64,000 nucleotides of DNA from NCBI GenBank assembly GCA_964016885.1, contig OZ024746.1, positions 60,884,001 through 60,948,000 of the forward strand, in the 5' to 3' direction. Every line of letters starts with the position of its first letter. The first letter of the stretch is position 1. The translations under genes were made by a program, and so were the position numbers. Of the stretch, positions 2,528 to 58,585 are shown piece by piece. The notes beneath the pieces were generated by a model. The model did no database searches and was not told the DNA's origin. It saw only the letters and a list, made by a program, of their open reading frames with translations. The stretch is from Eledone cirrhosa (lineage: Eukaryota).

Positions 2528-2576
2528 CCTTTGTATTTGTCCCCTTCTTTTGTGCCCCTGTGGCTAATAAAGAAAC
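2528..2576 (+). mobile_element. 49-bp 3'-terminal stub of the (CTAT)-associated Tx1 family
   Basis: Near-identical to the last ~49 bp of the element ending at 29112 (CCTTTGTATTTGTCCCCTTCTTTTGTGCCCCT(G/A)TGGCTAATAAAGAAAC). CTAT/CCAT repeats lie on both sides. Confidence 0.85.
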
Positions 2577-2639: not shown

Positions 2640-3001
2640 TAAGTATCACTTTAGAAAGAGAATCAGAGTGGAGAGAGGCACTGCACCCCAGTAAATTTAC
2701 TGAAAAATGGGTGAATGAAGCAAAAATGGCCCGAGTGATTGGGCCTTCTCTTTTTATAAGCCTGTAGGTTGAAGAAGAGAGCAAAGGGAAGAAAGGAGCA
2801 CTTGCACAACACGCTCCTGGAGTTGAGGGTTGTTCTATCGACGGGGTATTAAACAACCCATTTGTGACGCTTCCCCCCTATTAGGGATTTCGATTGTTGT
2901 AATTGTTTGTTTTTATATTTTTTACACGACTGTATGTAAAATCCCCGGCATGTCTTTGTATTGCCCCCTTTTCTTGTGCACCCTTGTGGCTAATAAAGAA
3001 A
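2640..3001 (+). mobile_element. 5'-truncated Tx1 copy (ORF2 C-terminus + 3' UTR)
   Basis: Encodes KYHFRKRIRVER...EALHPSKFTEKWVNEAKMARVIGPSLFISL* (with a frameshift), matching the Tx1 ORF2 C-terminus. It ends GGCTAATAAAGAAAT-ATATCTAT and starts just after a (CTAT)n tract. Confidence 0.88.
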
Positions 3002-19785: not shown

Positions 19786-20326
19786 CATGTGCGTATGTGT
19801 GTGTGCATGTGCGTGCGTGTGTGCGCGTGCGTAGGTGCGCGCGCGAGACTGTGTGTATGTATATGCATATGCGCGCGTGTGTAATTGTGTGTGTGTGTGT
19901 AAACAGGTAGGGGTTTGCGCAAATACAAACAAACATACAAACAAACAAACAAACAAACATACAAATAATGAAATAAATAAGTGAAAGAACAAAAAAAAAA
20001 AAGATAACGATAAGCATTGGTGTGAGAAGTGATTTAACAGCTGTGTCTGTTCGTGATGTAGTGTGACGTCGGGTAGCATAAGGGTGGCATAGTATGACGT
20101 AGGGTGGCTGAGGGTGATAGCGTGTATGAAGGACAGGGTGTGAGAACAGGGTAGTGCTAGGGTGGGATAAAGGGAGAGTGCTTGTTTTGGCCGCAGATAT
20201 GGCCAAATGATTATGAAGTTCGCTTTGCAGTTACGTCGTTCAGAGTTCGATTCTAATGCCCTTACCATGCTCCGGGGTAACGCCTTCTCCATTCTGTCCG
20301 CCGGGGCTGTGGGGAGGCCAGCACAT

Positions 20327-21338
20327 GGGACCCCATTTGCTCACCATACAGAGAGATGGGAAGGGTGAGAGAGATGGAGGCGATGACAGTGGGAGTTCGG
20401 CTCTTCCACGTTCGGACCATGGACCCTATTTTCTCCCCATACAGAGAGATGTGGAGGGCGAGAGAGATGGGGAGGGCGAGAGAGATGGAAGAGATGACAG
20501 TGGGAGTTCGGCTCTTCCACGTCCGGACCAGGGACCCCATTTTCTCACCATACAGAGAGATGGGAAGGGCGAGAGAGATGGGAAGGGCGAGAGAGATGGA
20601 AGAGATGGCAGTGGGAGTTCGGCTCTTCCACGTTCGGACCAGGGACCCCATTTGCTCACCATACAGAGAGATGGGAAGGGCGAGAGAGATGGAGGCGATG
20701 ACAGTGGGAGTTCGGCTCTTCCACGTTCGGACCATGGACCCTATTTTCTCCCCATACAGAGAGATGTGGAGGGCGAGAGAGATGGGGAGGGCGAGAGAGA
20801 TGGAAGAGATGACAGTGGGAGTTCGGCTCTTCCACGTCCGGACCAGGGACCCCATTTTCTCACCATACAGAGAGATGGGAAGGGCGAGAGAGATGGGAAG
20901 GGCGAGAGAGATGGAAGAGATGACAGTGGGAGTTCGGCTCTTCCACGTTCGGACCAGGGACCCCATTTGCTCACCATACAGAGAGATGGGAAGGGCGAGA
21001 GAGATGGAGGCGATGACAGTGGGAGTTAGGCTCTTCCACGTTCGGACCAGGGACCCCATTTGCTCCCCATACAGAGAGATGGGAAGGGCAAGAGAGATGG
21101 AGGCGATGACAGTGGGAATTCGGCTCTTCCACGTTCGGACCAGGGACCCCATTTGCTCACCATACAGAGAGATGGGGAGGGCGAGAGAGATGGAAGAGAT
21201 GACAGTGGGAGTTCGGCTCTTCCACGTCCGGACCAGGGACCCCATTTGCTCCCCATACAGAGAGATGGGAAGGGCGAGAGAGATGGAGGCGATGACAGTG
21301 GGAGTTCGGCTCTTCCACGTTCGGACCATATCCTTGTG
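20327..21338 (+). repeat. Tandem array of 10 units of 93 or 111 bp (111 = 93 + 18-bp duplication)
   Basis: The GTGGGAGTTCGG anchor (minor variants) occurs at 20389, 20500, 20611, 20704, 20815, 20926, 21019, 21112, 21205 and 21298. A 315-bp (111+111+93) block is duplicated. Confidence 0.95.
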
Positions 21339-21641
21339 AGCCGCAACCTGGTACAGTCTGTGACTAACCCAGGTTCTGCTGCACGTCGGGCTGAGGAGGT
21401 CAAATTCTCCAAGTACCGGTCGCTCTCCGACAAGTTCGCAGTCGTGCCCTTGGCAGTGGAGACTTCTGGTGTCCTTGGCCCCAGGTCTACCTCTCTACTT
21501 ACCACCATAGGCGTTGAGCTGGCTAGCCGCAGGTGTGAGCCTCGTGAGATGGAATGGCTCTTCCAGCGCATCTCCCTTACCATCCTCCGGGGAAACGCCT
21601 TCTCCATTCTGTCTACCGGGGCTGAGGGGAAACCAGCACGT

Positions 21642-22281
21642 GGGACCCCATTTGCTCACCATACAGAGAGATGGGGAGGGCGAGAGAGATGGAGGCGATA
21701 ACAGTGGGAGTTCGGCTCTTCCACGTCCGGACCAGGGACCCCATTTGCTCCCCATACATAGAGATGGGAAGGACGAGAGAGATGGAGGAGATGACAGTGG
21801 GAGTTCGGCTCTTCCACGTTCGGACCATGGACCCTATTTTCTCCCCATACATCGAGATGGGGAGGGCGAGAGAGATGGGGAGGGCGAAAGAGATGGAGGC
21901 GATGACAGTGGGAGTTCGGCTCTTCCACGTTCGGACCATGGACCCTATTTTCTCCCCATACATCGAGATGGGGAGGGCGAGAGAGATGGGGAGGGCGAAA
22001 GAGATGGAGGCGATGACAGTGGGAGTTCGGCTCTTCCACGTTCGGACCATGGACCCTATTTTCTCCCCATACATCGAGATGGGGAGGGCGAGAGAGATGG
22101 GGAGGGCGAAAGAGATGGAGGCGATGACAGTGGGAGTTCGGCTCTTCCACGTTCGGACCATGGACCCTATTTTCTCCCCATACATCGAGATGGGGAGGGC
22201 GAGAGAGATGGGGAGGGCGAAAGAGATGGAGGCGATGACAGTGGGAGTTCGGCTCTTCCACGTTCGGACCATATCCTTGTG
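21642..22281 (+). repeat. Tandem array of 6 units of the same 93/111-bp repeat
   Basis: Anchor at 21704, 21797, 21908, 22019, 22130 and 22241. Confidence 0.95.
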
Positions 22282-22625
22282 CTAAGAATGTGTGTTAATA
22301 CTGCTGCTGTTGGGATCATAGAGATTATATGTGTGATTTTGTGTGTAGTAGACATCCACGCATTCACACACATCCACGTTTACATTTGTTCGTGTAATAA
22401 AAATGGATTCTACTTTTGACACAAGGCCAGCAATTATCCCAGTTCATTACTTTATTTTATCGACCCCGTAAGGATGAGGGGCAAAGTTAACCTCGGCGGG
22501 ATTTGAACTCAGATCGTAAAGGGGCGTAACTCTATGCTGCAAAGCATGGCGTCCGACCCTCTACCGATACTGCTAATCCACCGCAGTAAAGATAATTATA
22601 TATATATATATATAATACACACACA

Positions 22626-24066: not shown

Positions 24067-24472
24067 TTTGAATTGTCAAATAAGATTCTTGGAATGTTTT
24101 TCTACACCCAGGTTATCTATCTGTCTATCTATCTATCTTTCTCTCTATCAGACGTGTGTAACTTTGCGGAGAAGTTTCCGTTAATTTATGTAAGAAAAAA
24201 ACGTGAGTTTTTAGTTAAATTTTATATTATTGTGTAACTTGACCCCCCCGTCTGGACCTTCAGGTGGTGGGTCAACTCATTTTCGCCCCTACAGCGAAGA
24301 AATATCCGTTTGAAAAATGTTTTCTCCATCGAATCTTGGAAAAAATATTGTAAAAGTTTGATTACGTTATGAACGCTGCGTCCAACGTAATGGTGGTGGA
24401 GAGGCGGTAAGACTACAAAGCTCGCAGTCAACATCGTCTTCTCCCCCTTCCTTCTCAATAGACACTATAGAG

Positions 24473-26339
24473 ATGGAAAGACGAAATGAAAATGCAAAAA
24501 CAAATTCATATCCAAACAACACAAATGACACCAAACAGTTCAATGACAACAAAAATAACAGCAACACCAATAATGATGATAAAAACAACAATGATAACAA
24601 CAACAAAGAAAAAAATAAAGACAACACCAATAACACCAGCATCAAAGACAACAACAACACCAAGGAAAATACGAATAATATCAACATCGGTGACAACAAG
24701 AATAACAACAAGAATAACAACAATAATGACAACACCACCAACACGGATAATTCCACAAAGAAACCAAAAATTCCTTTGCACAGACAGTTCAAAAAAAGGA
24801 GGAACTGATATATCTCGACATAACAAATGCTGAACAACTTTTAAAGGACGCTAGGAGATATGTCACTTTCGAAAAAAATGGTGCTTTCAGCATCAATTCT
24901 CCGGTAGAAATTCGCAAGGAAACTGCTCTCAAAACGATAGTTTTTAGGACAGTTTCCAATTCTACCCGAAAACCAGTCCAATTGTCACAGAAAGAAATTG
25001 AACTGGTTTTCAAAAATTCAATGAATGATATTGCATTCATTCAAAGAAGCAAACTTTTTGGGAGTATTTCGGTACTCATGAAGGATCAATTGACGGCCCA
25101 AAATTACTCTGTGTCGCCAATTGTATCCAACCTGTACACCTTTTTCCCTACATACATGGGAAAAAGGATACAAAAGATCAAAATTACGAGTGTCACACCA
25201 AAGGTGAACATATGGTGGATACTGTGCGGCTTCATCAATTTTGATGAAGACAGAATACTGTCAGTAGGAAAGTCCCCCAGAGATGTATTCAATGGGACTA
25301 GCATTGAAGTTCTGGTGCAAATGAGCCCAGAGCGAATAGCTATGATCCCACAACGTGTACTCCTGGACGGACTCACCTACATAAACTTTTCGGTTGAGGG
25401 TAGGCGGCCTTCATGTTACCATTGCTTTAGCAGGGGTCATCTGAGGGCTTCCTGTCGTAAATTAATGAATAAAAAAAGGCTCTTCTGCCGACACCCATCA
25501 AAACAACACAACCACCAACACCACCACAACAACAACAACACCAACACACAAAAATAACCACAACAAACACAGTCCCACCCAACCCCACTCCACCTAAAAC
25601 CACTGCAAAATCACATACAGACACAACAGCTCCCCAAGACACCCCTCCCCAATCACACAGACGATACAACAGATGAGGCTATCTCGCCATCACCCAGTGA
25701 AGACGAGGGAGAACCCCATCGCTCGAAAAGAAAGAAAAGAAATCACAAAAGCAAAAAACCAGCAAACACTACCACAAACATACAACCACCAACACAAACA
25801 ACAAAAACATCACAAACAAAACCCCCACCTCCTGAAAACAAAATACCTGCAACAAAACGAAAGCACACACAAGAACTACAGACAAAAACAAACACAACAC
25901 AAGAAAATTACACTTACACTTACATAAACACTGAAAAAAAACACTCATGGAGACCATCACGAACGACCCTTCGGTGAAAACCGAAGGGAAAACTTTCGCC
26001 CACTCTATTAAAAATAGCAAAAAACTGAACCTAAAACTGATTAGGGTCCCTATACAAACTTATAGGTCCCTAAAAGAAACATTTGAGAAGGATGTGGGGA
26101 ATTCCTGCGTGAAACCACTCAACCGCGTCCTTCTCAAATGTCTCCCCACCCCAGACACCCCATCCCACCAGACCCCACCCCACCAAACATCTTCGTCCCC
26201 ACCCCGCCGGAAACCACCACCCATCCAAACAACCCCTCCAACACCCCCATGGAAATCGTGCGGCCTGGTCCCCAGGAGACGAAGGGTGAGTGATCTCTTT
26301 TCCTCTTTTAACTTTTCAGCACCAACATGGCCAATATAA
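24473..26339 (+). pseudogene. Disrupted ORF1 of the plus-strand Tx1 element
   Basis: N-rich N-terminus (24473-24808), then 24982-25557 with SVEGRRPSCYHCFSRGHLRASC (paralleling SVEGKRPKCFRCGSKTHLRAFC in the other copy), then Pro/Thr-rich fragments. Broken by stops and frameshifts. Confidence 0.82.
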
Positions 26340-28877
26340 GAGTTGGATGTGTGAACGTACGCGGCCTGGGGATGCCCTGGAAACAGGGCAAACTCTTAAA
26401 CGACCTCACGTCGCACAGTATGGATGTGGTAGCCATTTGCGAGTCCAGGATCCACAGCAAGCGACAGCTGGCCCCCATCTTCGATGACTTTGAGATCTAC
26501 GCATCTCTCTGTCAACCGGGGGGTGGGGGCGGAATTGCCGTTTTGCTGCGGAAACACCTGGGCCTCGTAACACAGACGGTACATCTGGACCCGGAGGGTC
26601 GACTGGTGGTCCTAGACGTTGACGGTAGTGAAGGTGGAGCCTTCAGGCTGGTGGCCGCATATGCCCCATCCGGGACACCGCGGCCAGACTTCTTTAAACG
26701 TCTAGAGACTTTTCTGGGAACGTCCCGCTCCTTGCTTTTAGTGGGGGACTGGAATGGAATCCTAGATGCACGTTGGGACTATGTGGGAGCATGTCCCGAT
26801 AAAGGGGGGTGTAACAGTTAATCGACCGATTTGACCTGGCCGATAGATATCGACTAGATTTTCCGACTGCGCCACTGTGGACGTGGAGTAATCGTAGCGG
26901 AACATCTAGATCGTACCTAGATAGGGTTCTAGTTAGAAATAAGGATAGGGACATGTTAAGCTGTCCACAAATGTTCATGGTTGCCTATTCAGATCACAAA
27001 CTAGTGACCTGCATGGCCAACCTTGATAGAACCCATAGACAAGGACCCGGCTACTGGAAGCTGAACTTGTCGTTACCGACAAGCAAAGCCTACAGTAGAC
27101 GGATTAGCCCTTTAGTTAAACAGCACTTGACAGGGGCCATTGTCAACAACAGATGGTGGTACTCTCTCAAGAGGGCAGTTAGATTAGACTCGATAGTTTT
27201 TAGTAAAGAATTAGCGTTAGATAGAAATAGAACCGAGAAGGAACTGGTAGATAAAGTAGAAGGGGCACGGACCCGTGTTCAGGGGCTGGATTTCTGCAAT
27301 GCACAACAGCAACATCTGCTCAAGGGTCAAGGTGAACGGCTACCTCTCGGAGCCGTTTCATATTACGCGATCCATTCGACAGGGATGCCCTCTCTCCTCC
27401 CTTCTGTACGTACTGACTCTCGAGCCACTACTGCGGAAGCTGTAGCTATTGCAGGGTATCCCTCTGGAACCGGGACTGCGGAAAGCGGTGTCGGCCTACG
27501 CCGACGACGTGACAGTAATGGTGTCGAGCGCCTCGCAAATCGAGGAATCGGCACCTTACTGAAGGAATACGAAAGTTTCACAGGAGCGAAGCTGAACCGG
27601 GACAAGTCCATCGGTTTGCAACTCGGATCGTGGAGAGGCAAACCGATGTCTTCCGATGGCGTCGTCGAACGCTGGACGGAAGGACCGGTAAAGCTGCTCG
27701 GAGTCTGGTTTGGTCCGGACCTCCAGGTGGAGAAGAACTGGAACGAGGTGACGGCCAAGGTGTTTGCACTCACCCAGAAGTGGGCCGAGTGCAAACTATC
27801 CTTGAAAGGTCGAGCGGAGGTGGCGAACACTTTTATAGCGTCCGCCATCTACTACCGCTTGACCGTCGTGCCTTGTCCAGCCAAAACGCTCACCAAAATG
27901 GAGCGCGCGCTCTTCCAATTCCTTTGGAAGAGGCGGGCTCCTTTGGTGAGAGATCCATCTGCTGCCAACACCCTTCCAGCGGAGGGCTGGGGATGACGTG
28001 GCTGACGATGCGCAAACACGCGCTCAGGCTGCGGCATCTCTACGTATTCCTCACTGGACAACCGGTGTGGGCCCCGTTCGTGAGGCGAGCCTTCCCACGA
28101 CTCGTCTCACTGACCGAGCTGCAGTCCTGGGTTCAGCAAAGACCGAGGAAAATGGGCGACTGGCACATCGAATGTGCTCAGGAGCTCACAGCCCTCTGGC
28201 AGGCGGACCCGGCGATCAGTGGAGACTCCACTTCGTCATTCTATAGAGGGTTGATCCGCAGCAAGTGCGACGACGCGCTCGGTGAAATTCTAGGCGTAGA
28301 GGAAGATGAACTGGCCAGTCTGTTCGGTAGGACCTTCCGCCCGGGACCGATGGACAACTTCCAAAAGTCCCTGGCCTGGTAGTGCTACCGAGGAGCTCTA
28401 CCAGTTCGAGACAAGCTCTACAGACATGGGCGCCCGGGCAGGGACCCTGCAAAAAAGATCTGTCCGAGGTGCGTGCGAGACGAAGAAACCGTCGCGCACG
28501 CATTCATACACTGCCCGGGTGTCACCGACCTGTGGGGCTATGTGGAACGACTATTGTCGCGGGTGGGACCAATCCGGTTGACCACCGAGTCCATTGTCAA
28601 TGTCAAACCGCCACCCTCCTTCAAAAACGAAGGAGAGGCGGTTTTCCTTTGTGTGATAGCTATGGCGAAAGAGGTTGTATGGTGGACAAGGTTGAAAGGG
28701 CTGAGGTCAGACATCTTTCTCTCCGGCCAACAACTGATTCTTTTTTTCAAATACCACTTTGGAAGAAGAATCAGGATGGAGAGAGAGGTGCTGTACCCCA
28801 GCAAGTTTTATGAAAGGTGGGTGAAAGTGGCGAGAATGGCCCGAGTGAATGGGCCTTCTCTCTATATCAGCCTGTAG
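26327..28877 (+). pseudogene. Disrupted ORF2 (APE, partial RT, CCHC) of the plus-strand Tx1 element
   Basis: MANIRVGCVNVRGLG...GDWNG (APE) and SYLDR/SDHK motifs are present. Near 27268 the sequence jumps from ELVDKVEGA to [11 protein letters not shown], losing about 300 codons relative to the intact ORF2. RQGCPLS and YADD survive in shifted frames, and the ORF ends VNGPSLYISL*. Confidence 0.9.
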
Positions 28878-30854
28878 GTTGAGGAAAAGGAGGAGGAGAG
28901 GAAGGGAGTACAAACTCTTCGTACTCCTGGTGATGAGGGTTGCACATTTTTTCGGGAGTATGTGTTACCCATATGAACTGTCTCCCCCTATTGGGGAAAA
29001 TCGACTAATTTTTAAATTGCATTTGTGATAATATTTTACGTTTTTATTGTATGTAAACTTCCCCCTTTGTATTTGTCCCCTTCTTTTGTGCCCCTATGGC
29101 TAATAAAGAAACATATCTATGTATCTACACACACATAATAATTCTAACGTGGGTCCATAACCTGTGATAACTTTTGTGACACCACTCGGCGGACGCGTTG
29201 CTCAATGTTATTCGGAAAATATCGATGAGCCTAGCTTTCATTGTCCGTGTTTGTGTTGAAAATTAAGATCGAAGAAAATTTTAAATGAACCCTAGTACGT
29301 GACAGTATTGTATTTTATCAATCTTGGAATAATAAAAGATGAATTTGACTTCGTTGTGGTTTGAACTCAAAATGTAAAATCCCCGTTGAAAATACTTAAG
29401 TTGGTTTTAATTAGGTTTTGAGTTCAAATTCTACCCTGGTTGATAAAATATATACCAATCGAATAATGGTTTCTGATTTAGGCACAAGGCCAACAATTTC
29501 GGGGGAGAGGAAAGTCGATTAAATCAACCCCAGTGCATTACTAGTACTTTATTTATCGACCCCGTAAGGATGGAAGGTAAAGCTAACCTCGGCAGGATTT
29601 GAACTCAGATTATCCGACATTCTACCAAACTGACAATCCACCGCCCTATACCAATCGAATACTGGAATCGTTTGAATGGTCTCTCGGCATGGGTTCTGCC
29701 AGGTTTAAACGGTCCAAGGCACATCGTTTGTCGTGACATCAGGAGCTACGGGTCCATACATACGTACGCTAAGCATACGAAATGTGTAGTCATGTTTCCA
29801 ATATTAATTAAAACAAACTAAGGGACCCTCTATGCGCTCGCTAAACCTCCTAGAAATAATAGCCAAATCTCACTCAAACCACACCATTACTGCCCCAAGA
29901 AAAGAAGAACATTTCGACAATGCAGATCTATAATGGAAAATTAAAATTTAAAAAAACACAAAACAATAAAAAAACTCATAAAAGACGGTATGGTCACGGC
30001 TAGAACGCTTTTGATCACATGTCAGATTAATAATGGCTGAAGTGAAGCTAAAGAACCCTGATGGTGGTAACAACGACAACAACAACAACTACAACAACAA
30101 CAACAGCAGCAGCAACAACAACAACAGCAATTGTTATTATAGTTGTTATGTTTCTTTTGGTGAATTATTTTGTTTTGTAAACAAAGCTGCATTTCCTTTC
30201 TCTATTATTTCTTTGTTTATAAAATTAAAATCAGAGAAACAGCAACAAACAAACTCTTAATGTCTGTCTCTTCCCATTTCCTTTACGTTAAAAAAAGTTA
30301 ATGCAGCGAAAAACAAACCCCCACACCTACATCACCACCGCCAGCACCATCACCAGCACCATCACCATCACCATCACCAGCACCATCACCAGCACCAGCA
30401 CCATCACCAGCACCAGCACCATAACCAGCACCAGCACCAGTACCAGCACCATCACCACCACCACCACCACCACCAGCACCAGTACCAGTACCAGCACATC
30501 TATGATATCTCTATCAATATCGATATCGTTAGAGACGTGAGAGGCCGACAGAGGAGAGGCTAAACAGGATCATCCTGTGTTTATCATTTGACGTAAGAAT
30601 GACACATTTGGAACTATCAGACCTCGTTTTCTCTTCATTTCTGTTTGTCTTACAATTTTTTGTTTTATGTTTTGATTTAAAAAAATCAAATAAACAAACA
30701 AACAACTGTCTGGACCATTAGAACAACAACAACATTAATTTCAACGATTACAACAACTTAAACAACAACAATACCTCTCCCATAATTAAACAAACTTAAA
30801 CAAGAACAACAACTTAAACAACAACGATACCTCTCCCATAATTAAACAAACTTA

Positions 30855-31074: not shown

Positions 31075-32407
31075 TTGGCAGTATAGGTAGAGCATCAGAC
31101 ACCATGATTTGCAGCATAGAGTTGTGGCCCTTTACGTTCTGAGTTCAAATCCCGCGGAGGTTAACTTTGCCTTTCATACTTTCATACTCGATAAAATAAA
31201 GTACCAGTAATGTACTGGGTAATTGCTGGCCTTGTGCCAAAAGTAGAAACATAATATACATATTTTTAACGCTAAATCGTTAATAACAATATTTGCCGGC
31301 CTATTGGACGCCTTTTTTTTTACGTTATATTTTGACGTTTATAGGCATTTTTATAGACCACGTCCAATATTCGCGGGTGCTCTAGGAAGGTAGCTCCCGC
31401 GAATACCGAGGGACAACTGTGCGTCAATGTCAAAACAAAACACATCAATAAAACACGACTTCAACATCAACAACAACAAATAACTTTTAAATCTTCCACA
31501 AAAACCAGACCAATATAGCAACAACAACAAAACGAACATTTTCAACAAGGTAACAACCTCCCCACAAAATAATACCTTCCACCCGACCCCCACTCCCAAT
31601 AAAACACTATCAACAAAGAACAGCAAGAACTGCAGCAGTAACAACAACAACAACAGCATTAAAGTCGTCAATCTCAACAACAATAACAGCAACTATAACA
31701 ACAACAACAACACCAACAACAACAGGATTGTTATCAACGCCAATAACAACATCAACACTAGATGCTGCTTCTTGTTGCAACAACAGCTACACCACCACCA
31801 CCGCCACCACTAGCACTACCACTACCACCAACACCACCACTAGCACTACCACAACCACCACCACCACCACAACCAGCACTAGCATTACCACCACTACCGC
31901 CACTACCACCAGCGCTACCACCACGACCACTACTACCGCCACTACCACCACCGCCATCACAACCGCCACCACCACCATCACCACCATCGCCACCACTTCT
32001 ACCGCCACTACCACCACCGCCATCACAACCATCACCACTACCACCATCACCACCATCGCCGCTGCCACCATCACCACCATCGCCGCCGCCACCACCACCA
32101 CCACCATCATGATCATCACCATAAACAAGAACAACAACCACAACAATAGCCGCAGTCATTACAAATTAGAAAACCATACCAATATTGGCAAGTCAGTTTG
32201 ATAAGTGAAAAATAAAAGAAAACAAACAAAAACGATAAAAAAGAAAAAAAAAAAATGAAAAAAAAGAAAAGAAAAGATAAAGGAATATAAGAGCTGACGT
32301 AAGACCTATCTACAACTGTCCGAGAATGATCATAAAGATAAGAGGCTTCCGTATACAGACGTAAACATTAGCACGATGTCTCGCGCGCGCGCGCGCGTGT
32401 GTATATA

Positions 32408-32603
32408 GGAAAAGAGTCAGGACCCCGACGGCTGAGCTCCGGCCGTTCCGACAGCTAGATTCGAACTGTTCGGATCTAGCTGTCGAAACGGCCGGAGCTC
32501 AGCCGCCGGGGTCCTGACTCTTTTCATATTACCCACTCTCCTACCTTAAGTATGGAGTACTTTGGTGCGTTATGGTCCACCTGGTTCCTTACCACACTTT
32601 CCT

Positions 32604-32634
<31 letters not shown>

Positions 32635-32762
32635 ACGAAGGAAATGTGGTAAGGAACCAGGTGGACCATAACGCACCAAAGTACTCAATACTTAGGGTAG
32701 TAGAGTGGGTAATAGGAACCAGTAAGACCCCGACGGCTGAGTTCAAGCCGTTTCGACGGCTA
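32408..32762. repeat. Foldback element copy 2 (~118-bp palindrome) plus an inverted partial third copy around (TA)n
   Basis: 32408-32525 is palindromic about TCGAAC-T-GTTCGG. 32526-32608 is inverted-repeated at 32634-32715 across (TA)n. Confidence 0.88.
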
Positions 32763-33430: not shown

Positions 33431-33995
33431 ACATATGTATATGCACATGTGTATATGTGCGTATGTGTGTATGAAATTTGTGTCTATATATCTATGTTCA
33501 CGCTTGGTAAGCATGCATACAATGACGTTTCTTGAAACATTAATGACCATCCTCTAGCAAGTAGCATCAGCAGCAGCAGTAGCAATAGCACCAAGCAGGA
33601 ACAGGAACAGCAAAAACAATGAGAAGGCAGTTACATGTTCCGTTATCGTCGTTGTCGTCATCACCAGTCAGACTAAGTTGCAGATGCAACTACCTAGGTC
33701 ATTGGTTGCATCTGTGTTTGAGATAAGAAATAGAAAGTTGTTTGCATCCTGCTGTCGTAATTTCCAGATGGGCTGCAGATAAAATGGACTATTATACAGA
33801 TCTCACATGCACACACTTGGAGGCACATATGTATGTGTGTATGTATGTATGTGTGTATGTGTGTATGTATGTGTGTATGTGTGTATGTATGTATGTATGT
33901 ATGTATGTATGTATGTGTGTGTGTATGTATGTATGTGTGTATGTGTGTATGTATGTATGTATGTATGTATGTATGTATGTATGTATGTATGTATG

Positions 33996-34095
33996 TTTTC
34001 TCTTTCTCTTAATTTCGTGTATATTTTTTTGACCGGCCACCTTCCTGGTGGCAAGGTTGTAAAAGAAAAGAAATTGTCATCCCATCTGTAAAAAA
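33996..34095 (-). mobile_element. 3'-UTR-only copy of the same RLE element, in (CATA)n
   Basis: 33996-34083 is almost identical to 34214-34300, in the same orientation and with the same 3' junction into (CATA)n. Confidence 0.85.
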
Positions 34096-34213
34096 TGTAT
34101 GTATGTGTGTGTGTATGTATGTATGTATGTATGTATGTATGTATGTATGTATGTATGTATGTATGTATGTATGTATGTGTGTATGTATGTATGTATGTAT
34201 GTATGTATGTATG

Positions 34214-34658
34214 TTTTCTCTTTCTCTTAATTTCGAGTATATTTTTTTGACCGGCCACCTTCCTGGTGGCAAGGTTGTAAAAGAAAAGAAATTGTCATCC
34301 CTTGAATCGCAAGAATGTTTTGCAAATTTTGAAGGTGCCAGCTATCGCAGTCATTTGTAGACTATGAATTAGGGAGCTGCGCTTTTTGTCCGCAAATCCA
34401 AGTTCAGTCATACTTTGGTCCAAGCGGGTTGGTATATAACCCGTAGCACCAATAATGATGGGTATGAAGCTAAAGGTGTATCTTGGATACTGGATTTGTA
34501 AACTCCTCATCAATGGTCCGTAGATGTCCTCCTTCTCCTGTATTTTTCTGACAACGTTTACATCAAGTGGGCAGCTGATCTCCACAACAGAACACGTTTT
34601 CAATGTGTGGTCCCAAACTACAATATCAGGCCGGTTGTGCTTTAATTTGGTGGCAGTT
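34214..34658 (-). mobile_element. 5'-truncated RLE-type (R4/Dong-like) non-LTR retrotransposon embedded in (CATA)n
   Basis: 34295-34658 encodes KHNRPDIVVWDHTLKTCSVVEISCPLDVNVVRKIQEKEDIY...IPIIIGATG, a restriction-like endonuclease RPD..E..K pattern. An ~80-bp 3' UTR follows, then (CATA)n, and (CATA)n also lies upstream. Confidence 0.88.
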
Positions 34659-34849
34659 GTGTGTATGTATGTATGTGTGTGTGTATGTATGTATGTATGT
34701 ATGTATGTATGCATGTATGTGTGTGTGTATGTATGTGTGTATGTATGTATGTATGTATGTATGTATGTATGTATGTATGTATGTATGTATGTATGTATGT
34801 ATAGATAGATGGATGGATGCGTGTATGTATGTTTGTGGGTATGTATATA

Positions 34850-34936
<87 letters not shown>

Positions 34937-35184
34937 TTTCTTTATTAACCACAAGGGTTTACATAAAGTAGACATTAAGGACAGTGCAGGACAATGCAGG
35001 ACGGTACAAATGGGCATTTCTGCGTGTAAAAAACAAAAACAGAGGATGTAACAAAAAATAACAATGAAAAATTCCCCAATAGGGGGCAGACTTCGGAGGG
35101 ACATTTGTGGAGAAAGCCCAGTAAAAAGCCACAATGACCCTGACCACCAAGGCAAGTGCCCTCTCCCAGTTTTCCACCTTTAGT

Positions 35185-38100
35185 TTACAGATATATACTC
35201 AGAGTCGGCCCATTCACTCGGGCCATTCTTGCTTCTCTCACCCATCTTTCAACAAAATGCTGGGAAGAGAGCACTTCCTTCTCTACTCTGATTTTCCTTT
35301 TCAAATGAAATTTGAAAAAGTCAATCAGAGCATCATCGAAGAGGTAAGTGCTCGTCTTCAGCCCTTTCAAACGTGTCCACCATACTATCTCTTTCGCCAT
35401 GGCCACCAGACAGATAAAAACTGCCTGCCCTTCCCGGCTAAAGGAGGAGGGCGGGGCAATCCTCACGATAGACTCAGATGATAGCTGGATCCGTCCTAAA
35501 CGCGACAGCAGGTGTTCGACATAAACCCACAAGTCAGCAATTTTCGGACACTGGACGAGTGCGTGCAGGACGGTTTCGTCGCCCTGCGCGCATCTCGGAC
35601 ATGCCCGGCTGACGGCACCTCCATGCCTGTAGAGTTTATCCCGAACTGGCAAGGCTCCTCGGTAGCACTGCCAGGCCAGAGATTTCTGGAAGTTGTCCAT
35701 AGGCCCTGGCCCGAAAGTTCTCCCGAAGAGATTGGCTAGTTGATTTTCGTCGACGCCTAGAGTTTCCCCAAGTACGTCGTCGCTCTTCCCCTCCACTAAT
35801 CCTCTATAGAACGCCGAGGTGGAGTTTCCACCGATCACATTGCCCGATTGGTCGAGGGCTGTGAGCGCCTGAAGACATTCCAGTCTCCAGGCGCTCCCTC
35901 TCGGTCTTCGCTTGACCCAGGACTGCAGCTCCGTCAAGGAAACGAGCTGGGGAAAAACGCGTCTAGCAAACGGCGACCACACCTGATCACCGTCGAGGAA
36001 GAGGTGGAGATGTCGTAGCCTGAGCGCGTGCCTGCGCATCATCAGCCACGGCATGCCCAGCCCTCCACGTAGCGGGTGTTGCCAACAGATGGACCGCCTG
36101 ACCATCGGAGCACGTCCCTTCCACAAAAAGCGAAAGAGCAAACGCTCCAGCGCAGTCAGGCGAGGCTTAGGACAAGGTACGACGGTTAGGCGGTAGCAGA
36201 TGACAGACGCGATGTACGCGTTAGCCACCTCCGCTCGACCTTTCAGGGATAGCTTCCTCTCCGCCCATTTCTGGGTGAGAGAAGCCACCCTGCTCGTCAC
36301 CTCGTCCCAGTTTTTGTCCGTCTGGAGGTCCGGACCGAACCAGACCCCTAGCAATTTAACCGGTCCGTCCGTCCAGCGCCCGACGACGCTGTTGGACGGC
36401 ATGGACCTGCCTCTCCAGGTGCCGAGCTGCAGGCCCACTGACTTTTCCTGGTTGATCATTGCTCCTGTCACCGCTTCGTATTCTCTTAGTGTAGTGCCGA
36501 TCGCCTCGATGTGTTTGGCGTTCGACACCACTACGGTGACATCGTCCGCATATGCTGACACGGATCTTCCGCATCCTAGTTCGCGCGGGACTCCCCTCAA
36601 CGTCTCCAGTTTGTGCAGTAATGGCTCGAGAGTCAATACGTACAAGAGGGACGAGAGGGGACATCCTTGGCGGACCGAGCGCATGATGTTGAACGGTTCC
36701 GACAGGTGACCGTTCACTCTCACCACAGAGCAGATGTCGCTGTGCATGGCAGCGATCCAGCCTCTGAAGACGGGCCCAAAGCCAGCCGCCCTCGGGACTG
36801 CCGCTAGGTAACGATGGTCGACCCTATCGAAAGCTTTCGACTGATCTAAATTGATCAAGGACCCACCCGTGCCAGGTTCCCTAGCTACCCTCTCTACGAT
36901 GTATCGCATGAGGTGGAGGTTGTCGTGGATGGATCTGTCGGGAATGGCGCATGTCTGCGCCTCTCCCACCAGACCACCAACGACAAGCGCCAACCTCTTT
37001 GCTAGCACCTTGGCCAAAATCTTAAACTCTGTGTTTAGCAGAGTTATGGGCCGGAAATTGTCTATGTTATCCCCCTTGTTCGGATCCTTTCTCAGCAGTG
37101 CCACCGCTCCTCGGCTCACAGAACTGGGAATTCTCCCGTTCTGTTGCCAGTTGCAGTAGACGTCCGCCAAGAGGCCTCCGAACAAGTCTGGCATCTGTAC
37201 GTAAAGTTCATAGGGCAGACCATCCAAACCAGGCGATTTACCCCTTGTGCAGCCAGTCATTGCCTCCCGTACTTCAGCGGCTGTTATCGGCTTTTCGCAA
37301 CACCTCGCCTCAGTGGCCGAGAGCCGCGGCAGTCCGTCGAGGTAGACACTAAAGTCCATCCCTCTACCCGGCCTCCCGCTGCCCCCGAACAGCTGAGCGA
37401 AGTGTCGCTGAAAAGCTTCACACATTTGCCCGGGATCGAGTAGCATGCGCCCGTCGTGGTCCACCAAAGACCGGATCGTGGCTTTGTTGCCACGACGCGC
37501 CTCCGCCACTCGGGCCCATTGAACGGCTTTCGTCCCCTCGTGTCTGAGAGCACGCACCCTAGCTCTGACAACGCAGCCTTCGTGCTTTGCATTGAAGAAT
37601 TGGTCAAGGGCCAATTTCGCCGCAAGCACGTCGGTCGCAATGCCTTTGCTAAGCGCCTCGTCTAATTTTCTAACTAGTTCTCCCTCTGCTCTATTTTTCT
37701 CTATTGCTAAAGCCTTACTAAACCTAATCGATTCTATTCTAATCGCTCTTTTCAGAGCAAACCACCACTTGTTGTTGACGATGGCCCCCGTCAACGCCCG
37801 CTTAACTAGTTCGCTAATCCGGTCTCTGTAGGCCTTGCGCGCTGGTAAGGACGCGTTTAGCTTCCAGTAGCCGGGTCCTCGTCTATGAAGCCTATCTAAG
37901 TCAAGCACACAGGTCACGAATTTGTGGTCCGTGTAGCTGACTATCTTGAATTGTGGACAGCCTATGCTAGACCTATCTATTTCCCTACAAAATACTCTAT
38001 CTAGATATGATCTGGATGACCCTATGCGGTTTGTCCAAGTCCACATTGGCACATTCGGGAAATCCAATCGGTACCTGTCAGACAGTTCAAAACGCCTGAG

Positions 38101-38604
38101 CAGGTTGGTGAGGCTCTTGCACCCTCCACCCCTATCCGCTAATCCCACACAGTCCCAGCGTGCATCTAAGATCCCGTTCCAGTCGCCCACTAACACTAAA
38201 GAGCGGGACGTTCCAAGAAAGGTCTCCAGTCGCCGGAAGAAATCAGGCCGCCCTGCTCCTGTCGGGGCATAGACGGCCACTAGCCTGAAAGCTTGCCCGT
38301 CTCCGCTGGTCACGTCCAGCACCACCAGCTTACCCTCTGGGTCCAGGAAGATGGCCCGTATGGCGAGATCCAAACCTCTCCGAAAAAGCACAGCAACTCC
38401 TCCACCCGATCCAGGACGGCTGGGAGATGCGTACACATCGTAGCCGCCGAAGATCGGTGCGAAGGCCCGTGCTTCGGAGATTCTGGTCTCGCTGATGGCC
38501 ACTACATCTATGTTTAGTGACCTGAGGTCGTTGAGCAGGTGACCCTGCTTCCATGACGACCCCAAGCCACGCGCATTTATGCTGCCTATTCTGAGTGAGG
38601 TCAT
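35185..38604 (-). CDS. Tx1-type ORF2: APE endonuclease + reverse transcriptase + C-terminal CCHC, 1139 aa, uninterrupted
   Basis: APE motifs SINARG, ISET, VYAP, GDWN, SYLDR, TDHK; RT motifs KSPGLDG, FRPITLLN, DQSKAFDRV, QGCPLS, YADD; C-terminal CPRC-x5-ETVLHALVQC. Confidence 0.96.
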   Translation of the reverse strand: MTSLRIGSINARGLGSSWKQGHLLNDLRSLNIDVVAISETRISEARAFAPIFGGYDVYASPSRPGSGGGVAVLFRRGLDLAIRAIFLDPEGKLVVLDVTSGDGQAFRLVAVYAPTGAGRPDFFRRLETFLGTSRSLVLVGDWNGILDARWDCVGLADRGGGCKSLTNLLRRFELSDRYRLDFPNVPMWTWTNRIGSSRSYLDRVFCREIDRSSIGCPQFKIVSYTDHKFVTCVLDLDRLHRRGPGYWKLNASLPARKAYRDRISELVKRALTGAIVNNKWWFALKRAIRIESIRFSKALAIEKNRAEGELVRKLDEALSKGIATDVLAAKLALDQFFNAKHEGCVVRARVRALRHEGTKAVQWARVAEARRGNKATIRSLVDHDGRMLLDPGQMCEAFQRHFAQLFGGSGRPGRGMDFSVYLDGLPRLSATEARCCEKPITAAEVREAMTGCTRGKSPGLDGLPYELYVQMPDLFGGLLADVYCNWQQNGRIPSSVSRGAVALLRKDPNKGDNIDNFRPITLLNTEFKILAKVLAKRLALVVGGLVGEAQTCAIPDRSIHDNLHLMRYIVERVAREPGTGGSLINLDQSKAFDRVDHRYLAAVPRAAGFGPVFRGWIAAMHSDICSVVRVNGHLSEPFNIMRSVRQGCPLSSLLYVLTLEPLLHKLETLRGVPRELGCGRSVSAYADDVTVVVSNAKHIEAIGTTLREYEAVTGAMINQEKSVGLQLGTWRGRSMPSNSVVGRWTDGPVKLLGVWFGPDLQTDKNWDEVTSRVASLTQKWAERKLSLKGRAEVANAYIASVICYRLTVVPCPKPRLTALERLLFRFLWKGRAPMVRRSICWQHPLRGGLGMPWLMMRRHALRLRHLHLFLDGDQVWSPFARRVFPQLVSLTELQSWVKRRPRGSAWRLECLQALTALDQSGNVIGGNSTSAFYRGLVEGKSDDVLGETLGVDENQLANLFGRTFGPGPMDNFQKSLAWQCYRGALPVRDKLYRHGGAVSRACPRCAQGDETVLHALVQCPKIADLWVYVEHLLSRLGRIQLSSESIVRIAPPSSFSREGQAVFICLVAMAKEIVWWTRLKGLKTSTYLFDDALIDFFKFHLKRKIRVEKEVLSSQHFVERWVREARMARVNGPTLSIYL

Positions 38605-38639
38605 GTTTAAAATAGAGTGGAAAAGATGGGAAAGACCAC

Positions 38640-40784
38640 TTACCGTACTTTTGGTAGAGGAGGGATGGTTTTTACATCCCTTTTCACTTGATCGTCTGGT
38701 GAAGGGACCGTTGAATCGTCCCTTCGGCTGGTCGTCGGCTCTTCTAAGAGAATGTCTGAATATACTCTTCGATTGATGGTTCCTCCTAGGTCCCTGAAAT
38801 CACCAACTGCGTTGGGGAATTTCGTTTTAATGTTTGTGTATTGTTTCTGTGCTATTTTTAGCAGTCTTATGTTAGTTGGCGTTTTGATTGGTGCTGGTAT
38901 TATGTAGTCCTGTTGTGAAATGTCTGTGTGTTCAATTATGTAAGTCATTAGTTTCTTGTTGTGTGTGTTTATTGCCGTGCATTTGTTTTTCTGGGGGTGG
39001 GGTGTGGTTCTGCTATTTTCTTGTCGTTGTTGCTGGGTGTGTGTGTTTTGTTGTTGTGTTTGCGATGTTGGTGCTTGTGGTGGTGGTGTTGAAGGTGTTG
39101 TTGGCGGTGGGGTTGTCGCCGGCGGTGATGGTGGTGCTGGTGTGGGTGGTGATGGTGTTGGTGGTGTTGCTGCTGTGGGTCTCTTTGCAGTAGACTTTAC
39201 CCTTTTCTCATTTCTTTCCTCCCTTTTCAAAGGCGACGATGCGCTGCTTCTGCGTTTGTGCCTTCTTGCGACCTTTTGCCATCCCTCTCCCACCTCACAC
39301 TCCATGTCTGATTCTGTAAGGTCGGGGAGGGGTACCAGCTCCACTCTTTCACTTGTTGTTGTTGGTGATGTTTGCACTGGAGTCTCTGTTGCAGCTGCAT
39401 TTGGTATTGCTGTTGTTGTTGTTAATATTTCCACTGCTGCTGCTGTCTTTGATTTCCGTGGAGTGGGTATGGGTGCCACGGACCTATCGTTCCTGGTTGC
39501 CGCTTGTCCTGTTGCTGGTAGCCGTGGAGCCGGATTCGGAAGGAGGGGGGTTTTCTCCTTTCTCAGGGTCTTCTCGTTGCAGAAGGCCCTGAGGTGAGTC
39601 TTCGATCCACAGCGAAAGCATTTCGGGCGTTTGCCCTCAACACTTATGGGCAGTTGAGTGCCGTTATCGAAGTCTATCACATCCGGGATAGCTTCGATGC
39701 ACTCCTGGTTGGTTTGGATTAGCATCTCAATGGAGGAGCCGACCCAATCTTCTCTTACTTTTTTCTGTACTTGCAGTACAGTTGTTTTGTCCTCGATTCC
39801 GACGAGGACAGACGCGGCCAGCCAAGAAGGGGTCATTCCGGGGGGGGGGACGTGGGTCAGTTTGACCCTCACAATTTTTTGCCCGCAGTAGGAGGGCACC
39901 AACACCATTTCCTCGCTCCTTAGGGTCACTACTGATTGGGCCTTTGCCTCCTGGGGTGTGGCAAAAAGTACGTCTACGGTGGCATATTTTTTGCCTCGGG
40001 TGATGTGCGTTTTCCGCTGCCACACAGACCCCAAGGCTTTTTGTATTTGGGCCTCTGTGGCTCTTTCCACCCTACGGGATTTTGTACTTACTGTACGGTA
40101 CGTGACCGTACAGTGCTCTTGGGTCTCGAAAAACTTTTCCGCTGCCTTGCAGATTGCTCGGTGTCCGTTCTTTGTCACCATCTTCTTCGCTTCCTCTAAT
40201 TCCTCATTTGTTATGAGGATTGTTTCCAAGTTTTTCGCAATACCTGCAAATGAGATTGGTTTTTCTCTGCTGTTGTTGTTGTCGTCAGAGCTGCTGGTAC
40301 TTTTGTTGTTGCTGCAGGTACTACGACTACTGCCTCCGCCGCTGTTGCTGTGGTTGTTGTTGGTGTTGCTGCTGCTAATGCTGTTGTTGTTTATGTTGCT
40401 GGTGATGCTGTTGCGGCTGCTACTGTTGTTTTCATTGTCACTGTTGCTGTTGTTATTACGGCTGCTACTGCTATTATTCCTGACGTCAGACGAATGAACT
40501 GGGTTTTCGTATTTCCCGCACACCTGTTTCGTCGCTGTCGTCGTCGTCGTGGAGAAACCTTGCACGCTTTGCACGAGACTTTTCTTTTCTTTCGTCGCTT
40601 GCGAAAGAGAAGGGAGGGAGAGAGACACATTTAAAGAAGGGGGGGGGGGAGAGACAATCTTCTCTCTGCTGTAGTGGTGATTGAGGAAGAAGAAGACGGA
40701 ATGAGTGGGAGTGACGTATGAAATTTCTTTTTCGTAGCCATGTTGTTTTTTGTTTAAAATGAAATTTTGGGTACAAAACCCCAA
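38640..40784 (-). CDS. Tx1-type ORF1 (nucleic-acid-binding, single zinc knuckle); true start uncertain
   Basis: Contains CFRCGSKTHLRAFC (CCHC), an N/S-rich N-terminus, a Pro/Thr-rich C-terminal part and a GWQKVARR motif. It ends 35 bp before the ORF2 ATG. The track start is a TTG; a better ATG at 40741 is out of frame across a C11 run. Confidence 0.88.
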   Translation of the reverse strand: MGFCTQNFILNKKQHGYEKEISYVTPTHSVFFFLNHHYSREKIVSPPPPSLNVSLSLPSLSQATKEKKSLVQSVQGFSTTTTTATKQVCGKYENPVHSSDVRNNSSSSRNNNSNSDNENNSSSRNSITSNINNNSISSSNTNNNHSNSGGGSSRSTCSNNKSTSSSDDNNNSREKPISFAGIAKNLETILITNEELEEAKKMVTKNGHRAICKAAEKFFETQEHCTVTYRTVSTKSRRVERATEAQIQKALGSVWQRKTHITRGKKYATVDVLFATPQEAKAQSVVTLRSEEMVLVPSYCGQKIVRVKLTHVPPPGMTPSWLAASVLVGIEDKTTVLQVQKKVREDWVGSSIEMLIQTNQECIEAIPDVIDFDNGTQLPISVEGKRPKCFRCGSKTHLRAFCNEKTLRKEKTPLLPNPAPRLPATGQAATRNDRSVAPIPTPRKSKTAAAVEILTTTTAIPNAAATETPVQTSPTTTSERVELVPLPDLTESDMECEVGEGWQKVARRHKRRSSASSPLKREERNEKRVKSTAKRPTAATPPTPSPPTPAPPSPPATTPPPTTPSTPPPQAPTSQTQQQNTHTQQQRQENSRTTPHPQKNKCTAINTHNKKLMTYIIEHTDISQQDYIIPAPIKTPTNIRLLKIAQKQYTNIKTKFPNAVGDFRDLGGTINRRVYSDILLEEPTTSRRDDSTVPSPDDQVKRDVKTIPPLPKVR

Positions 40785-41283
40785 TAACTGGTTATTTAAC
40801 CCCGAAGGGCCAAATAACGGACAGAAAGACCCCTCTCACGAGGAGGAGGGTGTCTTTATCAACAATTTGGTTCAAGTTTTAAACAATTTACAATTGTTTT
40901 AACGGTTAAAAATTACTATACCTTACAGAGCCGAGCCTCCGTCAACCATGGCATTCAATAATAATAATAATAATACTTATAATAATAATTGTTTCTACTT
41001 TTGGCCCAAGGCCAGCAATTACCCAGGACATTACTGGTACTTTATTTTATCGACCCCGTAAGGATGAAAGGTAAAGTGAACCTCGGCAGGATTTGAACTC
41101 AGACCGTAAAGGGACGTAACTATGCTGGAATTCTAGGTAATAATCTAGGTAATAATAATGATACTATTTATAGTTATGTATATACTATAAAGAACTATAA
41201 ACAACTATAAACAGGAAAGGTCAGTAATTTCTTACTACCTTATTACCAGTAACAGAAATAGCTCAATGTATATTTATATATAT

Positions 41284-48039: not shown

Positions 48040-49560
48040 TCAGACTGGTAGAGAGCTGTGAGCTCCTGACAACATTCCACATGCTAGTCGTTCAGTCTCA
48101 GTTTTCGCTTGACCCAAAACTGCAGCTCAGTCAAAAAGACGAGCTGCAGAAAGACGTGTCTTACAAAGTGGAACCACATTTACCGTTTAGGAATATCTGC
48201 ATTTGCCGTATCCTCAGCGCATGACTGAGCATGTTCATCCACGGCATTAGCAGCCCTCCACGCAAAGGGTTTTGGCAGCAGATGGACCACCTGACTAGTA
48301 GAACCTGTCCTTTCCACAAGAAGTGAAAGCGCGGGCGCTCACCCTAGCCTGGTGATGCGCGAACTGAGGCAAAGGACGACGGTCAGGCCGTAATATATGA
48401 TGGAAGCGATGTACGCGTTTGGCACCTGTACGCGTTTGGCACTGTTCAATCTTTCAGAGATAGCTTCCACTCGCCCCATTTTTGGGTGAGAGTGGCCACC
48501 CTCCTCATTACCTCGTCCCAATTCTTATCTACCTGGAAGTCCGGACTGACTAAACCAGACTCCGGACAACTTAACAAGTTAGTCCGTCAAGTGTCCGACG
48601 ACGCTGTAAGACGGCATCTTCAGGTGTCGAGCTTCAAACCCACCAACTTTTCCGGATTCATCTTTGCTCTCGTCAACCTTTCATATTCCTCTAAGGAGTC
48701 AACAACCACCTCGATTTCCGAGGTGTTGTACACTATCACGATGACGTCAGCATATACCGACTTAGCAACTCCACGTCCTTGTTCGTGTGGGATGCCTTTC
48801 AAAGGCTCCAGCTTTTGTAGTAGTCACTCAAGAGTCAGCACATACAAAGGAGGAGAGAAGACATTCTTGACAGACCGAGCGCGTGATCTGAAACGGTTTC
48901 GAGTTTACTGCCAACCTTCTCTATGATGTATCGCACGAGGTGGAAGTTTGTCGTGTTTAGACCGTGTCGAGATTGCGCACTTCTGCACTTCTCCGACCAG
49001 ACGTTTGACAACAAATGCCAATCTCTTTGCTAAAAAAAATCTTTGATTGTTTGTTGAGCAGAGTTATGGACTGGAAATGATCAATTGTGTCTCCCTTCAT
49101 CACGTCTTTCCTCATCAATGCTAACACTCCTGACTTACAGAACTGGGAATTCTTCCGTTCTGTTACCAGTTGCAGTTGACAGCTGCGAGGACATCGGCCA
49201 ACAAGTCTGGCATGTCTACATAAAACTCGTAGGGTAGACTATCCATACCGATCGATCTACGTCCCATTCAGCCACTTAGGGCTTCTCGTATCTCGGATAG
49301 TGTTACCGGCTTTTCGCAGCATCTTTCAGCAACTGTTACGGCAGGCTGTCGATGTAGAAACTGAAGTCTGCCACCATCTCCGTCCCCCGCTTGCTCTGAA
49401 CAGTTGTGCAAAGTACTGCTGGAAAGCTACACACATTTGGTTGGGATTGAGCCGAACACGTTCATGTCGATCCGCTAAAGACTGAATTGTGGCTTTGTTG
49501 CTATGGTGTACCTCTGTCACTTAGATACACTACCCTCAGGGGCCTCCCAACGAAGCTCTC
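48040..49560 (-). pseudogene. Older degraded Tx1 ORF2 (RT region) fragment
   Basis: Peptides NKATIQSLADRHERVRLNPNQMCVAFQQYFAQLF, KSVYADVIVIV, EKLVGLKLDT and NAYIASIIYYGLTVV align to the intact ORF2. Many stops and indels. Confidence 0.85.
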
Positions 49561-49586
49561 TCTTCTACTCTCTCTCCGCCCCCTCT

Positions 49587-49632
<46 letters not shown>

Positions 49633-53304: not shown

Positions 53305-53530
53305 TTTAGCAGTATTAGTTGTAGATGTTATCGAGATGCAAGTGACATAATAACAGCAGAAATTAGAGATGAAATATACGTTTATTTTTTGTTGTAGCAC
53401 AAACAATGGTGTTGTACAGAGGCTGGTATCTGGCGTGTGATCCGTCGGCTTTCCAGTGGCTGTCTGTCTTTTCTTTCTGGCGTTCTCAACCGGCGTTGTT
53501 CTATCAAAGAGCGTGAGGCGTCTTACTACA
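53305..53530 (-). repeat. 3' LTR of the Gypsy element (226 bp)
   Basis: Direct repeat of 58586-58813. Confidence 0.93.
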
Positions 53531-53756
53531 GTACCTCGAGCCAGATTTTCAAATTATTGAAAATCGATGTCATTACTCACATGTGGAGTAAGATGGCGAA
53601 AAATGCAACAAGGGGGAGCTATCCGCTCTAGCAAAAATTGAATCCAGAATAAGGATTTGAAAAATGTTAAAAAAAAAACGACATGCATGCATAAAAAAAC
53701 AAGGCAAAGGAAAAGCAGAAACACAGAGGCAAAAAAAAAGGTGCAGCTAACATAGT

Positions 53757-58566: not shown

Positions 58567-58584
58567 TTCTTACGTCGGTCACCA
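58567..58584 (-). other. Primer-binding site, tRNA-Trp-like (degenerate)
   Basis: TGGTGACCGACGTAAGAA lies 1 nt inside the 5' LTR. It resembles the tRNA-Trp PBS TGGTGACCCCGACGTGAT with a 2-nt deletion. Confidence 0.65.
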
Positions 58585-58585
58585 C

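Follow-up and report, generated by a model that had tools for sequence, protein, structure and literature searches.

Tx1-like and R4/Dong-like retrotransposons of Eledone cirrhosa flanked by strand-specific microsatellites of their own

A stretch of 64,000 nucleotides from the genome of Eledone cirrhosa (assembly GCA_964016885.1, contig OZ024746.1, positions 60,884,001 to 60,948,000 of the forward strand; hereafter the window) holds copies of two Tx1-like families of retrotransposons that lack long terminal repeats (non-LTR), A and B, and of one R4/Dong-like family, C. Mapping of their junctions confirmed that, genome-wide, copies of each family are flanked at both ends by a strand-specific microsatellite of their own, (ATT)n for A, (CTAT)n for B and (CATA)n for C. 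By far the most likely reason for this fixed-strand placement is that the endonuclease of each family nicks that family's repeat, the nick then serving as the start of reverse transcription. The copies and junctions in the window, with coordinates counted from its first base, are as follows.

34935..40956, minus strand: family A, full-length Tx1-like (L1 group) non-LTR retrotransposon of 6022 bp with two open reading frames (ORFs), within (ATT)n
35185..38604, minus strand: A ORF2, 1139 amino acids (aa) from ATG, with apurinic/apyrimidinic-type endonuclease (APE), reverse transcriptase (RT) and C-terminal zinc finger; catalytic motifs present
38640..40741, minus strand: A ORF1, with CCHC knuckle; long stop-free frame, off frame from the conserved ATG
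34905..34934, minus strand: A 3' junction, (ATT)10, i.e., (AAT)10 on the plus strand
40957..40990, minus strand: A 5' junction, (ATT)n, with (AAT)6 on the plus strand at 40957-40975
24150..29112, plus strand: family B1, Tx1-like, own 5' end kept, about 875 bp of the RT deleted, within (CTAT)n
2528..2576, plus strand: B1 3' stub, 98% to B1, CTAT-type runs on either side
2641..3001, plus strand: 3' piece from a different Tx1 family whose end is of B type, 70% to B1, directly downstream of (TATC)13
34215..34660, minus strand: family C, 5'-truncated R4/Dong-like copy comprising the C-terminal endonuclease part and the 3' untranslated region (UTR), (CATA)n on both sides
33997..34095, minus strand: family C stub (33997-34083 matched, the last 12 or so bases unmatched), flanked on each side by (CATA)n
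33838..34819, minus strand: imperfect (CATA)n/(CA)n array containing both C copies

Junctions in the window and across the genome

A first-pass annotation, made from the letters of the window, had named these junctions, and all of them are present in the sequence. Its description of A as an intact Tx1 element with (AAT)n at both ends and no poly(A) was correct as to the ends, where (AAT)10 and (AAT)6 were found and the 3' end runs into the repeat with no poly(A), and as to ORF2, which is open over 1139 aa, but not as to ORF1, which is frameshifted and stops 36 codons past the conserved ATG. That early stop arises because the window copy, relative to an open copy, has 2 extra bases in a homopolymer run near 40640, an insertion that may be an assembly error; both ORFs are open in three (L128, L130, L142) of the 22 further full-length A copies read, which are 95-99.8% identical. 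The (ATT)n run bordering A at its 5' end forms the 3' tail of a short interspersed element (SINE) at about 40990-41130. Of the three pieces ascribed to a second Tx1 family, 24150-29112 (a 97/94% copy of a 5.85-kb family) and 2528-2576 do belong to one family, but 2641-3001 is only 70% like B1 and is therefore a separate Tx1 family. All three adjoin CTAT-type runs, as annotated, but those on the 3' side, at 29113 and 3002, are short and of degenerate sequence. The C copy and its stub end, as was first noticed, at the identical 3' base in (CATA)n, and full-length C elsewhere in the genome is about 4.2 kb long with a single ORF of 1169 aa.

In the 3.0-Gb genome, the 40 best matches were collected for each of four element ends, namely the 3' end of every family and the 5' end of B; longer stretches were retrieved around the matches, and both junctions were mapped. 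To be scored as a match, a 5' junction had to have, no more than 4 bases away, 13 of 16 bases in agreement with the repeat on that strand. Twenty 10-kb stretches, picked arbitrarily, supplied the 56,800 positions of the background. Five of the 40 A copies lie outside the 5' count (L125, a wrong stretch; L026, with a 27-base flank that is visibly ATT; and three recombinants scored apart), as do eight of the 30 B 3'-end loci, which ran off the stretch; ten of the 40 matches of each B search and three of the 40 C matches were not included. The copies sampled are young, with a median of 97-99% likeness.

Tabulated in this way, the 5' junctions were not random, a point on which the first-pass annotation had staked its reading. 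They lay in (ATT)n for 29/35 A copies (23/23 full-length, 6/12 truncated), in (CTAT)n for 46/52 B copies (29/30 full-length, an (AT)n run at L117 being counted as a miss, and 17/22 truncated) and in (CATA)n for 33/37 C copies by rule, or 34/37 after the actual start of L167 had been located in (CATA)21; truncated C copies alone gave 32/35, and the three A recombinants 3/3 in (ATT)n. The background rates were 0.38% for ATT, 0.61% for CTAT and 1.55% for CATA, so that own-motif 5' junctions are enriched about 60-220 times, and not one of the 124 5' junctions was in the motif of another family or on the reverse strand. The 3' junctions lay in the family's own motif in 35/40 (A), 45/50 (B) and 35/37 (C) cases.

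Exact patterns counted over the whole genome extend these samples. Of 2,509 A starts, 2,405 stand directly behind eleven bases of (ATT)n in one phase; for B, a strict CTAT/CTCT pattern, likewise in one phase, precedes 190 starts out of 314. Exact words of the C 3' end number 4,516, and in a separate pattern 2,693 C ends are followed by CATACATAC. An additional C sample was drawn from 20 of the first 21 sites listed, regardless of flank or likeness, and its 3' ends were in CATA in 18/20 copies. Its 5' ends were scored CATA in 13/20, or 15/18 after resolution by eye, which yielded two more matches, two copies reaching beyond the stretch, one abutting (CAGA)n, one miss and one with the reverse-strand repeat.

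That the elements might insert at random, with the copies in microsatellites merely kept by selection or the repeats grown around them later, has some footing in a genome rich in microsatellites, where about 5% of background positions lie within one of the six motif-strand classes, and a case for passive accumulation has been made in Drosophila for Waldo-A/B (PMC3812793). Retention would not, however, sort copies by motif or by strand as the 124 junctions are sorted, and the copies are young; the table of motif by family has already largely refuted this explanation, to which we give very little credence. Still less credible, indeed close to negligible, is an artefact in which contigs were joined, or alignments ended, within microsatellites. 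Long repeats are hard to assemble and the ORF1 break in the window does fall in a homopolymer, but the sites are dispersed and number in the thousands, on chromosome-scale contigs, with differing flanks and non-periodic duplications. Family A is moreover present in public sequencing runs, in 11 run entries with half of its words or more. Those entries span eight organism labels, and the little-changed sequence points to close relatives or recent spread; no RNA run was among the public runs listed as containing A, which has no bearing on its expression. At a full-length A locus, contigs of two of four public runs covered both flanks, and none of the joints listed, in which repeat junctions are skipped, spanned the element, a result that speaks neither for nor against an empty site.

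Target site or appended tail

If nicking of the repeat by each endonuclease followed the established course of target-primed reverse transcription, the enzyme would nick the AAT (A), ATAG (B) or TATG (C) strand, the element RNA would be copied from that nick, and the opposite strand would be cut about 15 bases further on. The piece duplicated would be the repeat itself, leaving the target on both sides of each insertion, and since what is duplicated is repeat, arrays would lengthen and draw in more copies. Target choice in these groups is set mainly by the endonuclease (PMC4494074), and that of Tx1L is sequence-specific in vitro, nicking its own target almost exclusively (PMC1950540).

Imperfect repeats make the duplications readable. 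Those of A measured 15 bp, 18 bp and, in one case, 49 bp. Three B copies have duplications of 13-15 bp, an off-target B site has one of 9 bp and a tandem B case one of 25 bp. The A duplications and the 13-15-bp ones of B begin at offset 0-1 from the 3' end of the element, which argues that the repeat is the target and not a tail alone; in A they start at the last base of the element with ATTATT, so that no tail was added there. At the off-target A insertions L017, L138 and L146, no units were added and the duplication begins at offset 0. The 49-bp duplication, unusually long, belongs to L017, a truncated copy, and opens with two ATT units.

A 5' repeat encoded by the element was rejected as the sole cause of the 5' junctions, since truncated copies also begin in the motif, at many different 5' truncation points. 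Full-length starts are another matter: their repeat phase is fixed, so the RNA may be the source of a few of the repeat units there, and such starts by themselves are no proof of a target. It is accordingly the truncated copies that carry the weight. The phase suggests that the element RNA carries a few upstream repeat units that pair with the target.

Besides this fixed phase, several observations weigh against direct recognition of the repeat by the endonuclease. Nested 5' junctions, lying less than 200 bases behind an older Tx1-type 3' end, account for 15/35 in A and 24/52 in B. Half of the truncated A copies (6/12) lack the motif at the 5' junction, three of them being off-target sites, with 1-2 ATT-like units. 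One B 3' end was scored CATA, and one of the 20 copies of the additional C sample has the repeat on the reverse strand at its 5' end. The sample itself consists mostly of best BLAST matches, in which young copies are over-represented. For family C, a templated CATA tail is possible, since just one weak duplication, of 16 bp, could be read.

Several of these observations would also follow if the elements seeded themselves, i.e., if the repeat were added as a 3' tail and new copies were primed by RNA-DNA pairing at older tails or matching repeats, with an endonuclease of loose specificity. The nested junctions (40-46% in A and B), the nearly universal 3' runs, the fixed phase at full-length starts and the duplications of C, which are not reliably readable, can all be accommodated by such a scheme. 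It fits poorly with the off-target A insertions, in which no units were added, and with the non-nested 5' junctions (those not in a copy of the same type), which are also in the family's own motif in 15/20 A, 22/28 B and 31/34 C copies. Self-seeding would in any case also be motif-specific insertion and differs only in what selects the site. On this balance we hold self-seeding to be unlikely, and nicking of the repeat by the endonuclease the better account.

Lineages that share a repeat and the divide between ATT and CTAT

The first-pass annotation had supposed that the families partition the microsatellites among themselves. Each family does keep to its own one-strand microsatellite, but the further notion of one family per motif was ruled out, since CTAT is common to at least four Tx1 families and ATT/TAA to several kinds of element; the division follows lineages and not single families. 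Beyond B there are at least three more CTAT families (B3-B5), which lie upstream of B copies. The (ATT/TAA)n repeats are shared by Tx1 families A and E, by SINE tails and, on the opposite strand, by F, a Dong-like family of the TAA type. Family E, the second ATT Tx1 family, has its 3' end in (ATT)n at 26/29 loci, its 5' ends having been mapped roughly. Family F, an element with a restriction-like endonuclease (RLE) and an ORF of 1141 aa, ends in (AAT)n at 28/30 loci and starts in it in 10 of the 13 cases resolved among 20. It occupies the strand opposite A in the same arrays at 11/40 A flanks (3'), and F copies among L251-L300 stand tail to tail with a Tx1 end in 9/30 cases.

In quick trees the CTAT families form one clade, with support of 96 for the endonuclease and 100 for the RT, and A and E form a weak group in the endonuclease tree (80) that is unresolved in the RT tree. 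Between ATT and CTAT families, the endonucleases are 57-65% and the RTs 74-79% identical. Such close kinship would imply one target switch, in either direction, between ATT and CTAT within a single Tx1 radiation. Nineteen endonuclease columns separate the ATT from the CTAT families, among them residue 184, which is Ile in 6/6 ATT rows and Ser in 9/9 CTAT rows and falls within the part aligned with the hairpin of L1 that lies between T192 and S202. All 19 columns rest on one split and are thus indistinguishable from shared ancestry. In L1 endonuclease, a grafted hairpin loop shifted the nicking preference, the authors laying more stress on the shape and flexibility of the loop than on its sequence; specificity was retained in single point mutants (PMC1950540).

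A natural recombination bears on which part of the element sets the target. In the recombinant subfamily A2 (L148, L150, L151), an A endonuclease (93-98%) is joined to a different 5' UTR and ORF1 (about 52% at the aa level), and all three full-length copies start in (ATT)n. Their retention of the ATT target suggests that the determinant lies in ORF2 or at the 3' end, and we infer that in the Tx1 families it is ORF2. A broader scenario, which we put forward tentatively and regard as rather doubtful, is that the octopod Tx1 endonuclease was re-aimed between (ATT)n and (CTAT)n by few changes, including Ile/Ser 184 at the hairpin tip, that (CATA)n replaced (TAA)n as the target of an R4-type lineage, and that repeat-duplicating insertions contribute to the large microsatellite load of the host.

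Other sequences accompany these families. An unclassified repeat of about 610 bp (L167 4556-5166; flanks of L157, L174, L177 and L179) has (CATA)n on both sides, lies on the same strand as C, often adjoining it, belongs to no Rfam family and may be a non-autonomous CATA-targeted element. A different 3' end recurs before (CATA)n upstream of C at L153, L155, L163 and L064, possibly from a second CATA-associated family. In one C copy (L157 411-4391), a duplicated RT fragment is fused in frame before the ORF, giving an open frame of 1326 codons. An old, decayed Tx1 relic in the window at 48040-49589 is 66-75% like B and has (TG)n/(CA)n beside it, with (TG)n at the 5' side; it was considered as a fourth, TG-targeting family and rejected, as it has no close copies and its next matches, at 75-77%, belong to ATT family E.

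Clade assignment and known systems

In the L1 group and the Tx1 clade, ORF2 is preceded by an ORF1 with a CCHC zinc knuckle. In A and B the ORF1 translation contains CX2CX4HX4C, with no Pfam family above the cut-off. Their ORF2 matched Exo_endo_phos, RVT_1 and zf-RVT, an arrangement that fits the L1 group and Tx1, and its best solved relative is L1 ORF2p (E 5e-50), with R2 at 1e-20. Among 46 protein matches, in a comparison without reference Tx1 sequences, the only informative name was "Transposon TX1 149 kDa protein" (Stylophora, 32%). Both families also display the feature of the Tx1 clade, a sequence-specific target with a short duplication. In both, a splice-donor-like GT(A/G)AGT marks where ORF1 ends, and the ORF2 stop is closely followed by an AG (A: 38638-38645 and 35175-35190, minus strand; B: 26285-26292 and 28870-28880, plus strand).

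The single ORF of C (1165-1169 aa) matches RVT_1 and zf-RVT and has the R4-type order of an RT followed by a CCHC finger and an RPD..E endonuclease motif of the PD-(D/E)xK type; its solved relatives are all R2 proteins, and Pfam found no APE domain in it. Among the close relatives of the protein, a single one bears a name, that from Argonauta hians (52%), and in a tree without named references, C joined an Argonauta protein (100/100). It is 30% identical to the TAA-targeting F over the full length, on a long branch. The R4 clade has a divergent N-terminal Myb/SANT-like domain and no N-terminal zinc fingers (PMC7998251), and Pfam detected neither in C, the Myb/SANT-like domain having been found by HHpred in that study. 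Among molluscs, R4-Dong elements are reported to occur almost exclusively in cephalopods (PMC10294476), and a 2026 annotation of Octopus vulgaris described active Dong-R4 and L1-Tx1 families (PMC13282606), the main text of which, by a term search that leaves its supplements aside, does not contain the word "target".

Microsatellite targeting as a principle is twenty years old. Targets have been described for Kibi (TC), Koshi (TTC), Dong (TAA), Waldo (ACAY) and Mino (AC) (PMC3812793); crocodilian Tx1 families prefer (TTCC)n/(TTTC)n (PMC4494074); Togen, which is NeSL-related, inserts in (TG)n, and some HERO families are also microsatellite-targeted (PMC4640811). For Rex6, the accessible portion of PMC7599744 gives no target. 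Families A and B resemble Kibi, Koshi and the crocodilian Tx1 elements in having two ORFs, an APE endonuclease with an RT, one microsatellite as target and several families per genome. They differ in that (ATT)n and (CTAT)n contain A, whereas the runs of Kibi, Koshi and crocodilian Tx1 are of pyrimidines only; immediately upstream of some B starts there are a few TC units.

Family C likewise resembles Dong, DongAg, DongBg and the ostracod Dong of the R4 clade in its one ORF, RT, CCHC finger, RLE motif and microsatellite target. The target of Dong is (TAA)n in most insects, molluscs and cnidarians (PMC7998251), and it is also that of family F but not of C, in which 34/37 copies start in CATA. 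Togen and some HERO families resemble C as RLE elements on microsatellites, but are of other clades and on other repeats. The (CATA)n of C equals (ACAT)n, and ACAY repeats are the target of Waldo (WaldoAg1/2 and WaldoFs1, placed in the R1 clade by the title of a cited work; PMC3812793). The endonuclease of Waldo is of the APE type and that of C restriction-like, so the shared target is convergent.

The suggestion of the first-pass annotation that these targets are unreported for their clades agrees with the openly accessible literature searched, in which neither (ATT)n nor (CTAT)n was found as a reported site of Tx1 elements, nor (CATA)n as one of R4-type elements (Repbase and most subscription papers being outside reach), with the reservation that two of the motifs are known from other clades, TAA from Dong and ACAY from Waldo. 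Two features appear new against that literature, an R4-type element with CATA as its target and a switch between ATT and CTAT within closely related Tx1 families. The way in which non-LTR elements select and shift their targets is an open question with a bearing on tools for site-specific gene insertion, and the families described here, with close relatives on different repeats, thousands of young A copies and natural ORF1/ORF2 recombinants, render it testable with small proteins. If the re-aiming outlined above took place, they would constitute natural matched pairs for a change of endonuclease target. With the repeat as target, many long ATT, CTAT and CATA tracts of this genome would serve as landing pads, with consequences for microsatellite markers, repeat annotation and assembly.

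The window gave no gathering-level match in Rfam, and the 5' end of C only repeat-driven chance matches. An inverted repeat at 32397-32762 is 88% alike over 290 bp and has a related copy at 467-672, and a tandem array of 93/111-bp units occupies 20217-22294. At 53305-58813 there is a Gypsy-like LTR element with RT, RNase H and integrase and 228-bp terminal repeats that are 98% alike, sitting in a 74-bp tandem satellite that extends from about 51045 to the end of the window.

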